A stretch of 64,000 nt of DNA, taken from Mustelus asterias. Its lineage: Eukaryota. The stretch is taken from positions 37,696,001-37,760,000 of the forward strand of contig NC_135801.1 of the NCBI RefSeq assembly GCF_964213995.1, written 5' to 3'. The position numbers and the translations under genes are program-made. The notes under the pieces were generated by a model, which was not told the origin of the DNA, searched no databases, and saw only the letters and a list, made by a program, of their open reading frames with translations. How positions within the stretch are numbered: the first letter of the stretch is position 1; each line of letters starts with the position of its first letter. Shown in pieces: positions 1 through 41,982 of the stretch.

Positions 1-660
1 AAAAATCCAAAAACTTCTTAGCAAGAAAAACTCAACTGATTAATCTAAATATAACCTATTCAATTTAGTTCTGTCTCTGTCCAAAAACCTGTGGATGTAG
101 GCTCACTTGTCAATTTAGAATTCTAAGCTCAATTGCCTAGAGATCTTTCAATAATTGCTAATTACTTTTCCTCATTTATTGGTACATCACTAATGGAAGG
201 TTATAGCAGAGGCAATAGTAGAAGATCAAAAGCAATCTCTTCACAGTAATTTGTAATTGAAATTTTTGTTTTAAAAATGTCTACCTCAACATTACCTTGT
301 GGACTAAAATACTGAAAACAGTGGAAATGCTAAATTCAGTCACCTGATTTAAGGTCAAGCCACAAGCGAATCCCGTTCTCAATTGCAACAATGCACAGGG
401 GTGTAAGAGATATCAAAGAGATAATCATATTAACTACAGGTTATATTTAACATACTTGAGAGTTCAACCTACTTATTCTATATCTAGTATTTTTAAAATT
501 ACTACCCTAGAAGTATTGTTAAATTCTTAGAAATATTTTTTTAAAAAGTCACTTTATACAAAATTAAAAATACTTCTGAATACATATCTAGAGAAAAATA
601 AAGAATATTAAAAATTGTTAGTAAATTTTTAATTGTGAATATATTATTAGTCATGTAGAC

Positions 661-970
661 ATAATTCTCAGCCTTTTGGCTAAGATCAAGTTTAGTATCG
701 ACATGCTGTGCTTGTTTGAAGTCATTAGGTTACATTTTAGCTTCATTTGAAGCAATTTTTAAAAGTGGCATCTTGGCCTTTTGGCTAAGATGCAAATAAG
801 ATCAAGCTTTGGAGGAGGAGCTATGCCTACTCCAATCGGCTTGGATCATGTAGATCAAGCCCAAGACAGGAGGTGAGAGCCCTGTCTTGTCAGCTTGGAT
901 CGGGAACGTCTCAACTTGTTGAGACTCTGAATTGGACTTGATTTGATTGAATTGGAATAAAAACAAAAAA
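661..970 (+). mobile_element. U2 snRNA-headed short interspersed repeat, copy 1 (candidate SINEU-like element)
   Basis: TTCTCaGCCTTTTGGCTAAGATCAAGTtTAGTATC matches U2 nt ~6-40; second U2 fragment TCTtGGCCTTTTGGCTAAGAT at 771-791; hairpin-rich body; ATTG-type/A-rich tail; homologous copy at 41709-41982. Confidence 0.8.
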
Positions 971-1475
971 AGACTTAAGTACTGGGAATGAATACATTCA
1001 ACAACATGGAAAAGGTTTAGGAATGTAACCGAGTGCCAAAACACAGTTTTGGTACTATGATTCATCATGTGTTTACTGATCTGCTGTGCTGTTATAGAAA
1101 GGGATAGAGCAAAGACCATTAACCTCTCCCAAAGAAAGTAACATTTTAAATTTGGTAACACTGGCATTGTTACATATTTCTCAATGGCTAGTTATGTAAC
1201 AGCATTTGAAAAAAATCTCAAATTTATCTTCTTGCCCTTCGTAGCCAATTAGCACGGATACATACCAGAAAGTACGGTGAAAAAGGAGGAAATAAATATT
1301 CCTTCAAAAATTGAAAGAAGTTTCACAAAGTTTAACTGTATCTTTTTGCATTTACTAGCTTCCTTTGGTGACTTCAGCTGAGAGTGACATGAGAAATACA
1401 ATTTAGCACTGACTGAATCCCCAAAAATGCAAGCCAACAAAGTTGTACACAACAATCATTTAAGTGGACAAATTC

Positions 1476-4132: not shown

Positions 4133-5314
4133 TGATAAGGTGCCCCATAAAAGGCTGCTGAAGAAGATTAGGGCACACGGAGTTGGGGGTAGTGTGTTAA
4201 AGTGGATTGGGGACTGGCTATCCGACAGGAAGCAAAGAGTCGGAATAAATGGGTGTTTTTCCGGTTGGAGGAAGGTAACTAGTGGCGTGCCGCAGGGATC
4301 GGTACTCGGGCCGCAACTATTTACCATTTATATAGATGATCTGGAGGAGGGGACGGAGTGTAGGGTAACGAAGTTTGCAGACGACACAAAGATAAGTGGA
4401 AAAGTGAATCGTGTGGAGGACGGAGAAGATCTGCAGAGAGATTTGGACAGGCTGAGTGAGTGGGCGAGGATATGGCAAATGGAGTATAACGTTGAGAAAT
4501 GCGAGGTTATACACTTTGGAGGAAATAATAACAAATGGGATTACTATCTCAATGGAAACAAATTAAAACATGCTACCGTGCAAAGGGACCTGGGGGTCCT
4601 TGTGCATGAGACGCAAAAGCCCAGTCTGCAGGTACAACAGGTGATCAAGAAGGCAAATGGGATGTTGGCCTATATTGCGAGGGGGATAGAATATAAAAGC
4701 AGGGATGTCTTGATGCACCTGTACAGGGCATTGGTGAGGCCGCAGCTGGAATACTGTGTGCAGTATTGGTCCCCTTATATGAGGAAGGATATATTGGCAT
4801 TGGAGGGAGTGCAGAGAAGGTTCACCAGGTTGATACCGGAGATGAGGCGTTTGGATTATGAGGAGAGGCTGAGGAGATTGGGTTTGTATTCGTTGGAGTT
4901 TAGAAGGATGAGGGGGGATCTTATGGAGACTTATAAGATAATGCGGGGGCTGGATAGGGTGGAGGCTGAGAGATTCTTTCCACTTAGTAAGGAAGTTAAA
5001 ACTAGAGGACACAGCCTCAAAATAAAGGGGGGTCGGTTTAAGACAGAGTTGAGGAGGAACTTTTTCTCCCAGAGGGTGGTGAATCTCTGGAATTCTCTGC
5101 CCACTGAGGTGGTGGAGGCTACCTCGCTGAATATGTTTAAAGCGCGGATGGATGGATTCCTGATCGGTAAGGGAATTAAGGGTTATGGGGATCAGGCGGG
5201 TAAGTGGTATTGATCCACGTCAGATCAGCCATGATCTTATTGAATGGCGGGGCAGGCTCGAGGGGCTAGATGGCCTACTCCTGCTCCTATTTCTTATGTT
5301 CTTATGTTCTTATG
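4133..5314 (+). mobile_element. Young 5'-truncated CR1 LINE (family A) nested in the old CR1
   Basis: Open frame 4140-5213 with SGVPQGSVLGP and KFADDTK; (TTCTTATG)n tail; nearly identical to 1476-2404. Confidence 0.95.
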
Positions 5315-41708: not shown

Positions 41709-41982
41709 TTTTTTAAAATCCAATTCAATGTCTCAACAAGTGAGACATTCCCGATCCAAGCTGACAAGACAGGGCTCTCACCTCCTGTCTTGGGCTTGAT
41801 CTACATGATCCAAGCTGATTGGACTAGGCATTGCACCTCCTCCAAGGCTTGATCATATTTACATCTTAGCCAAAAGGCCAAGATGCTGCTTTTAAAAATT
41901 GCTTCAAATGAAACTAAAACGTAACCTAATGACTTCAACCAAGTACAGCATGTCGATACCACACTTGATCTTAGCCAAAAGG
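41709..41982 (-). mobile_element. U2 snRNA-headed short interspersed repeat, copy 2
   Basis: Reverse complement reads CCTTTTGGCTAAGATCAAGTGTgGTATCGACATGCTG... and is colinear with 672-930, with scattered substitutions and unrelated flanks. Confidence 0.8.

Follow-up and report, generated by a model that had tools for sequence, protein, structure and literature searches.

A SINEU-like family of U2-derived retroposons in Mustelus asterias that probably inserts at the U2 target site of a Keno-like element

The stretch of Mustelus asterias DNA analysed here (64,000 nt, hereafter the window) contains a repeated unit that begins like U2 snRNA and leaves it at about nt 40, near the position at which Keno elements enter U2 genes. 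What is this unit, and why does its likeness to U2 end there? The initial annotation proposed a non-autonomous derivative of a U2-targeting retrotransposon, transcribed from a hijacked U2 promoter. In our analysis, the window probably contains two dispersed copies of a SINEU-like, U2-derived family that inserts at U2 nt 38/39, the site of Keno, and that is likely transcribed from the U2 promoter and likely copied by Keno enzymes. The repeat unit is a retroposon of ~300 nt with a poly(A) tail and flanking target-site duplications, and its features in the window are as follows.

657-664 (+): probable left target-site duplication, 8 nt with one mismatch to 971-978; short, and weak alone
665-699 (+): U2 head, 33/35 identical to U2 nt 6-40, with stem I and the branch-point recognition sequence
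697-702 (+): head-body junction, the loop of a predicted 5' hairpin; hypervariable between subfamilies
702-731 (+): antisense arm; its predicted pairing with U2 nt 11-40 includes G-U pairs and is interrupted by two 2x2 internal loops
752-766 (+): single-stranded Sm-site-like run, 13/15 to nt 115-129 of the genome's U4; not significant over the whole element
766-794 (+): second U2 fragment, corresponding to U2 stem I (nt 4-27), with additional pairs that close it; CGGC precedes it in most copies
795-851 (+): middle hairpins with a word like U2 nt 23-31 and a variable loop; weak likeness to the 3' module (E 0.02)
852-955 (+): 3' module common to an older short family, whose profile matches 858-954 (E 1.4e-11)
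956-970 (+): AATAAA and A-rich tail
971-978 (+): probable right target-site duplication, pairing with 657-664
41709-41982 (-): second copy, of the same subfamily as copy 1, starting at U2 nt 13, with a shorter 3' end and no clear duplication

The head of copy 1 was aligned to the genome's own U2 gene (L031; E 3e-12). After U2 nt 40 this copy continues with GACATGCTG, where true U2 has TGTTCTT; in copy 2, on the minus strand, U2 nt 13-40 occupies 41982-41955 and GACATGCTG again follows. The replacement of TGTTCTT had been noted correctly for both copies, but copy 1 reads TTTAGTATC, not GTAGTATC, at the end of its U2 similarity. The start had also been placed too early, at 661: positions 661-664 are not U2 and are probably the left half of the 8-nt duplication. 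The bodies of the two copies align without gaps except for one base and are 93% identical over 242 nt. Rfam scores 661-858 as U2 (50.6 bits, above the U2 cut-off), with an alignment that is real over the head only. Elsewhere in the window, two near-identical LINE 3' fragments (1476-2404 and 4385-5313) lie 2,909 nt apart and are 100% identical over the compared blocks, as young insertions or a local duplication.

Both copies belong to a large dispersed family. A genome search with 661-970 returned 2,682 candidates, and the 40 scored ones are 95-100% alike and lie on many contigs. A pattern spanning head and body has at least 2,771 exact matches in the genome against none for the reversed pattern, so the join of head and body is not due to chance. 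We sampled 60 loci (the 30 best hits and the first 30 in genome order), of which 59 could be parsed. The sampled copies end in A-rich tails, and flanking duplications scoring at least 8 accompany 25 of 58 copies, as compared with 2 of 285 shuffled pairings. Sixteen of the 59 parsed copies start at U2 nt 1, and none of the 59 retains the U2 upstream flank (best match 13/30 letters). Their flanks look unrelated to each other, the site-specific target seen being U2, and the bulk of the family lies outside U2 genes. Within the window subfamily, the best hits show a median likeness of 97.5% (406 pairs, a figure biased towards best hits). Many subfamilies have succeeded one another in the manner of a SINE, and their shared body and diagnostic junctions (36 aligned copies, 100 listed junctions) indicate propagation as a unit, not independent chimeric U2 retrocopies. 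Subfamilies are often stacked head to tail, with the target duplication repeated between copies (L158-L160, L269, L149, L152-L153, L170). A classical Pol III SINE was rejected as an identity: Rfam scores only U2, and TTTT runs lie inside head and body. When 795-1080 was used as a query against four public runs from four organisms, 41-170 contigs in each of the four matched the body (795-975) and not the flank; the family therefore has relatives in other species.

The genome's true U2 genes were located in arrays on C24 (units of 1,833 and 8,035 nt) and on C21, the latter with a different upstream flank. Each 8,035-nt unit on C24 contains a 5.6-kb element whose ORF1 carries ZCCHC3-type RNA-binding domains and a zinc knuckle, and whose ORF2 pieces carry an APE-type endonuclease, a reverse transcriptase and zf-RVT (Pfam); in the L061 copy, ORF2 is split into several frames. 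Its protein relatives are Tx1 elements, including one named transposon TX1 149 kDa, and none is named Keno. The poly(A) of the element adjoins U2 nt 39, and U2 39-58 is duplicated. Since PMC4640811 places the start of the 3' flank at U2 nt 39 for Utopia as well as for Keno, we term the element Keno-like. The U2-targeting element that the initial annotation expected is therefore present in the U2 arrays of this genome. The insertion site given there for Keno, roughly nt 37-38, agrees with a shared site whose 3' flank begins at nt 39, but the duplication made here by Keno is U2 39-58. The Keno-like element itself starts with a U2 5-35 head, also at a non-U2 insertion; a short antisense arm comes next, and its internal loop falls on the same U2 bases as in the short element. 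The tail of the Keno-like element has at least 316 matches genome-wide, so its specificity is relaxed.

Several features of these arrays are of interest in their own right. At L061/L146 (C24:44.81-44.94 Mb), the Keno-interrupted U2 unit has been amplified into 15-16 near-identical 8,035-nt tandem units with one intact U2 each, and some of the Keno copies lack ~350 nt of an inserted repeat. The U2 genes at C21:28.05-28.08 Mb (L075, L136-L139) are of a second type, with ~89% likeness to that of C24 and an unrelated upstream flank; they form 448-nt units that are heavily invaded by Keno and the SINE. About nine units of the 1,833-nt array (C24:43.02-43.05 Mb; L124-L127, L130-L133) carry a variant U2 gene, with one or two repeats of nt 19-37/27 in place of nt 38-49. 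The replacement lies at the Keno site, and we read it as a scar that later spread across the array. The gaps in the 1,833-nt array were also considered as SINE masters; this was rejected, as these stretches proved to be U2 genes in which nt 19-37 carries small duplications. On C1418 (L286:2184-2700, L288:1-1240), two U4 genes enclose a full-length Keno, which has a U2 head and a flanking duplication, and a SINE copy in inverted orientation; neither insertion is within a U4 gene.

Does the short family use the Keno site? An A-run meets U2 39-61 at 29 distinct places (70 overlapping matches). The sequence before the junction is the Keno tail at 21 of them (15 in one tandem array), the body of the SINE at six, a SINE-like tail at one and another repeat at one. 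The six SINE-body junctions come from several subfamilies, and the family inserts as Keno does, with poly(A) followed by U2 nt 39, as the initial annotation had anticipated for the target site. No Utopia was seen at the examined junctions. Distant family members and an unrelated repeat likewise end at U2 nt 39 (L073:1525-1735, L144:5640-5790, L145), so other RNAs use the Keno site too. Away from U2, a family copy lies within 1.5 kb of eight of the first 30 Keno-tail loci, with several abutting, where chance would give fewer than one such neighbour even if the family were ten times as large as counted.

Some family members lie directly behind a U2 upstream flank. The type-2 upstream flank followed by U2 1-34 was found at 17 places, which continue into the SINE at ten, into Keno at three and into intact U2 at four; at least 75 nt of the flank is kept in six of the ten SINE-linked places. 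For the type-1 flank, two loci (L065:1551, with 300 nt of flank, and L089) run from the flank through U2 head, body and poly(A) into U2 from nt 39 onward. Promoter-linked copies belong to different subfamilies and often abut Keno; they include loci at C24:43060550, C14:62230k and C21:28064k. For the window subfamily, recognised by its GACATG junction, searches with exact or one-mismatch patterns gave 0 of 17 and 0 of 4 places where a copy directly follows a U2 flank, and the link through L068 is indirect. The initial annotation had called for copies with true U2 upstream or downstream flanks, and both kinds exist, the latter at L068. Hijacking of the U2 promoter is well supported by this genome anatomy; judged from their position, such copies would be transcribed from an active U2 promoter.

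Dispersed copies record a further round of the same process. At L271, L278/L279, L270, L280 and L281, a U2 5' piece ending at nt 40-50 is followed by 4-90 nt of U2 upstream flank and then by a full element, and at L271 and L278/L279 the whole chimera lies within a target duplication. L181, a copy of the short family, likewise starts with a U2 5' piece ahead of a full element. At L068, where the element is 94-95% like the window copy, a 14-nt duplication encloses not only the element but also U2 39-192 and then ~40 nt of type-1 downstream flank, and the end resembles the snRNA 3' box. These chimeras contain the 5' or the 3' part of a former host U2 gene.

The same family and the same Keno partner could also be explained by heads acquired through template switching onto U2 RNA and by read-through transcription from unrelated promoters, with the U2 insertions a by-product of Keno's target preference. 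This explanation would suit the location of most copies outside U2 genes and the fact that no master of the window subfamily was found linked to a promoter; for crocodilian SINEU, Kojima (PMC4494074) favours template switching and flanking promoters. We nevertheless consider it unlikely: the extra heads precede 4-90 nt of U2 upstream flank (L270, L271, L278-L281), which is absent from mature U2 RNA, full-length copies begin at U2 +1 without a common upstream extension, and L068 is a read-through into the 3' flank of a host U2 gene.

Why U2 similarity ends near nt 40 is best seen in the predicted structure of the head. The arm at 702-731 can form 24 of 30 pairs (including G-U) with U2 11-40, a value reached by 4 of 2000 shuffles, and the arm of copy 2 forms 25 of 30 (2 of 2000 shuffles). 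Folding places the junction in the loop of a head hairpin (z -4.3), and all of the 57 folds show head and arm paired. In the predicted helices, 98% of cells pair, as compared with 27-45% in slid controls, and non-majority letters make up 38% of loop columns versus 4% of stem columns. Two subfamilies lengthen the junction loop with new stems. Two-sided covariation was found in 2 of 62 pairs, a count matched by 229 of 500 shuffles, and in none of the head hairpin. As a plain inverted DNA repeat, by DNA identity, the arm is not significant (537/1000). The ungapped 30-nt pairing test failed on the L065 copy (1247/2000), in which the loop is shorter. The 5' end of the Keno-like element folds alike, with a shorter arm.

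Stopping near nt 40 holds for the window subfamily but not for the family: in the first 30 matches in the genome, identity with U2 ends at nt 34 (4), 37 (8), 38 (1), 39 (11) or 40 (6), which is no fixed insertion boundary. The breakpoint varies because the junction is the variable loop of the predicted hairpin. As this loop drifts freely, the nearness of the breakpoint to the Keno site reflects an origin there and not a precise cut. The nt-40 breakpoint would be the tip of the predicted hairpin, and the antisense arm would hide the U2 head. Candidate origins of the arm are a fold-back at the nick or second-strand priming on a U2-headed RNA.

The body also leads back to U2. An older, short U2-derived family of ~235 nt consists of U2 1-34, an antisense arm and a diverged U2 41-159 (profile E 4.2e-10); it retains the U2 Sm site and a hairpin like stem III, and has a 3' end of its own. 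Besides the query, 40 scored hits were 87-92% alike (loci L135:821-1010, L179-L202). Because the profile of this family also matches the 3' module in the window, the element can be described as a U2 gene that was interrupted and rebuilt around the Keno site and is now preceded by a newer head module. The 3' module contains, in order, a second antisense arm paired in the prediction to diverged U2 nt 40-60, a diverged stem IIb and U2 ~80-100. Direct profile searches of the 3' third against U2 gave no match, and the pairwise scores were reached by 8-32 of 1000 shuffles. Taken together, the body appears to be a patchwork of U2, its 3' third going back to U2 nt 41-100 by a transitive link through the older short family. 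The second U2 fragment reported initially is real, with a core at 775-791 (U2 nt 11-27), and fits an earlier round of head addition. The CGGC in front of it resembles the type-1 U2 upstream flank, and the internal stem I after CGGC fits an older head. Two other sources of the body were tried and set aside: Rfam gives only U2 and no other family at a useful score, and the long- and short-family profiles have no match to the genome's U1 or U4. The best pairwise scores against U1 and U4 were reached by 9-263 of 300 shuffles, the sole word being the 13/15 match to the U4 Sm site.

The body had been suggested to derive from a U2-targeting element, which leads to the proposal that the unit is a non-autonomous Keno (or Utopia) with an internal deletion and that its U2 head marks a fixed insertion boundary. 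Keno does resemble the unit in its U2 head and in a short antisense arm whose internal loop lies at matching U2 bases, and older subfamilies have a tail word of 7-12 nt (AAAGTAT) in common with Keno, which the window subfamily lacks. The origin of the body in the Keno UTR was rejected: when aligned to the 5.6-kb element, in a comparison that covered young Keno and its 83-97% relatives, only the U2 head and the A-rich tail match. With a 3' third that traces to U2 through the short family and a breakpoint that varies from nt 34 to 40, this proposal is largely refuted and we regard it as very improbable. It is likewise most unlikely that the source is a functional host variant-snRNA gene with the dispersed copies as its retropseudogenes. 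Conserved stems with variable loops, the Sm-site-like run, the U2 Sm site and stem III of the short family and the similar sequence in public runs of other organisms would agree with such a gene. Against it, neither a tandem array of the family nor a conserved single locus was seen, the copies linked to promoters are of different subfamilies and in many cases adjoin Keno, and subfamilies succeed one another as in a SINE.

The closest known design is SINEU, described only from crocodilians (Kojima 2015, PMC4494074), where it is mobilised by the Keno-related Tx1-Mar and targets a Mariner (Mariner-N4_AMi). As in SINEU-1 and SINEU-3, the shark elements have a U2-derived head, a length below 500 nt, poly(A) and frequent tandem insertions. 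Repeated 5' addition of U2 pieces is seen both here and in crocodilian SINEU-1, and the short shark family is structurally like SINEU-3, an internally altered U2 that forms a family (PMC4494074). Both also have targets in common with a Keno-related Tx1 partner, whose enzymes would mobilise the shark family. The differences concern the target, which is Mariner-N4_AMi in crocodilians (PMC4494074) and the U2 gene itself, at nt 38/39, in the shark, and the structure: relative to SINEU as treated in that source, the shark family has copies behind real U2 flanks and an antisense arm after the head, and no U1 piece was detected. The family is SINEU-like by design, and its origin is likely independent. 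With Keno, the short family shares a 3' flank from U2 nt 39, as does the Keno-like element (PMC4640811 and PMC4494074 for Keno); it differs in being non-coding and not built from Keno sequence. Utopia (PMC4640811) has the same nt 39 3' junction, variable 5' junctions and 20-bp duplications in reptile families, comparable to the U2 39-58 duplication here. It differs by its restriction-like endonuclease and was not seen at the junctions examined. Our literature search, which included PMC5381603 and PMC8869645, found no report of such a family in sharks; Repbase and Dfam lay outside the search and may hold it.

A combined life cycle can be proposed on these grounds. A copy inside a U2 gene would be transcribed from U2 +1, giving an RNA that begins with the U2 head. 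Keno ORF2 would reverse-transcribe this RNA, mostly into relaxed sites across the genome, where the copies would have no promoter and be dead; both window copies would be of this kind. Occasionally, a copy would land at nt 38/39 of another U2 gene. There the head may pair with the target and restore a seamless, promoter-linked master, or the head may be added behind the 5' part of the target, which would give a new head and leave the old one inside. Borrowing a promoter from a multicopy target gene is known from R2, which is co-transcribed with 28S rRNA and whose RNA contains upstream target sequence that helps to form the 5' junction. R2 differs in being a long autonomous element of Pol I rDNA, whereas here a short non-coding passenger uses a Pol II snRNA gene and most copies are off target. 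We advance only tentatively the full form of the cycle, closed within snRNA genes, in which a promoter-less SINE homes to U2 nt 38/39 through Keno enzymes and regains promoter and head, while its antisense arms mask the branch-point and U6-pairing head of U2 and its own diverged Keno target, so that splicing would be spared.

How SINEU is transcribed is named as an open question in PMC4494074, U1 and U2 promoters being upstream of the RNA. With loci directly behind U2 flanks and fossil chimeras at hand, this question is now testable. The family would extend snRNA-derived SINEs from crocodilians to cartilaginous fish, would show a non-autonomous element using the site-specific target of a LINE and would explain false U2 annotations, of which the window copy above the Rfam cut-off is an example. 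In one U2 gene type, a parasite follows 13 of the 17 promoter sites found, which is a considerable burden for a gene family central to splicing. If the closed cycle is true, snRNA-derived SINEs arose independently in sharks, and their transcription would have a direct answer.
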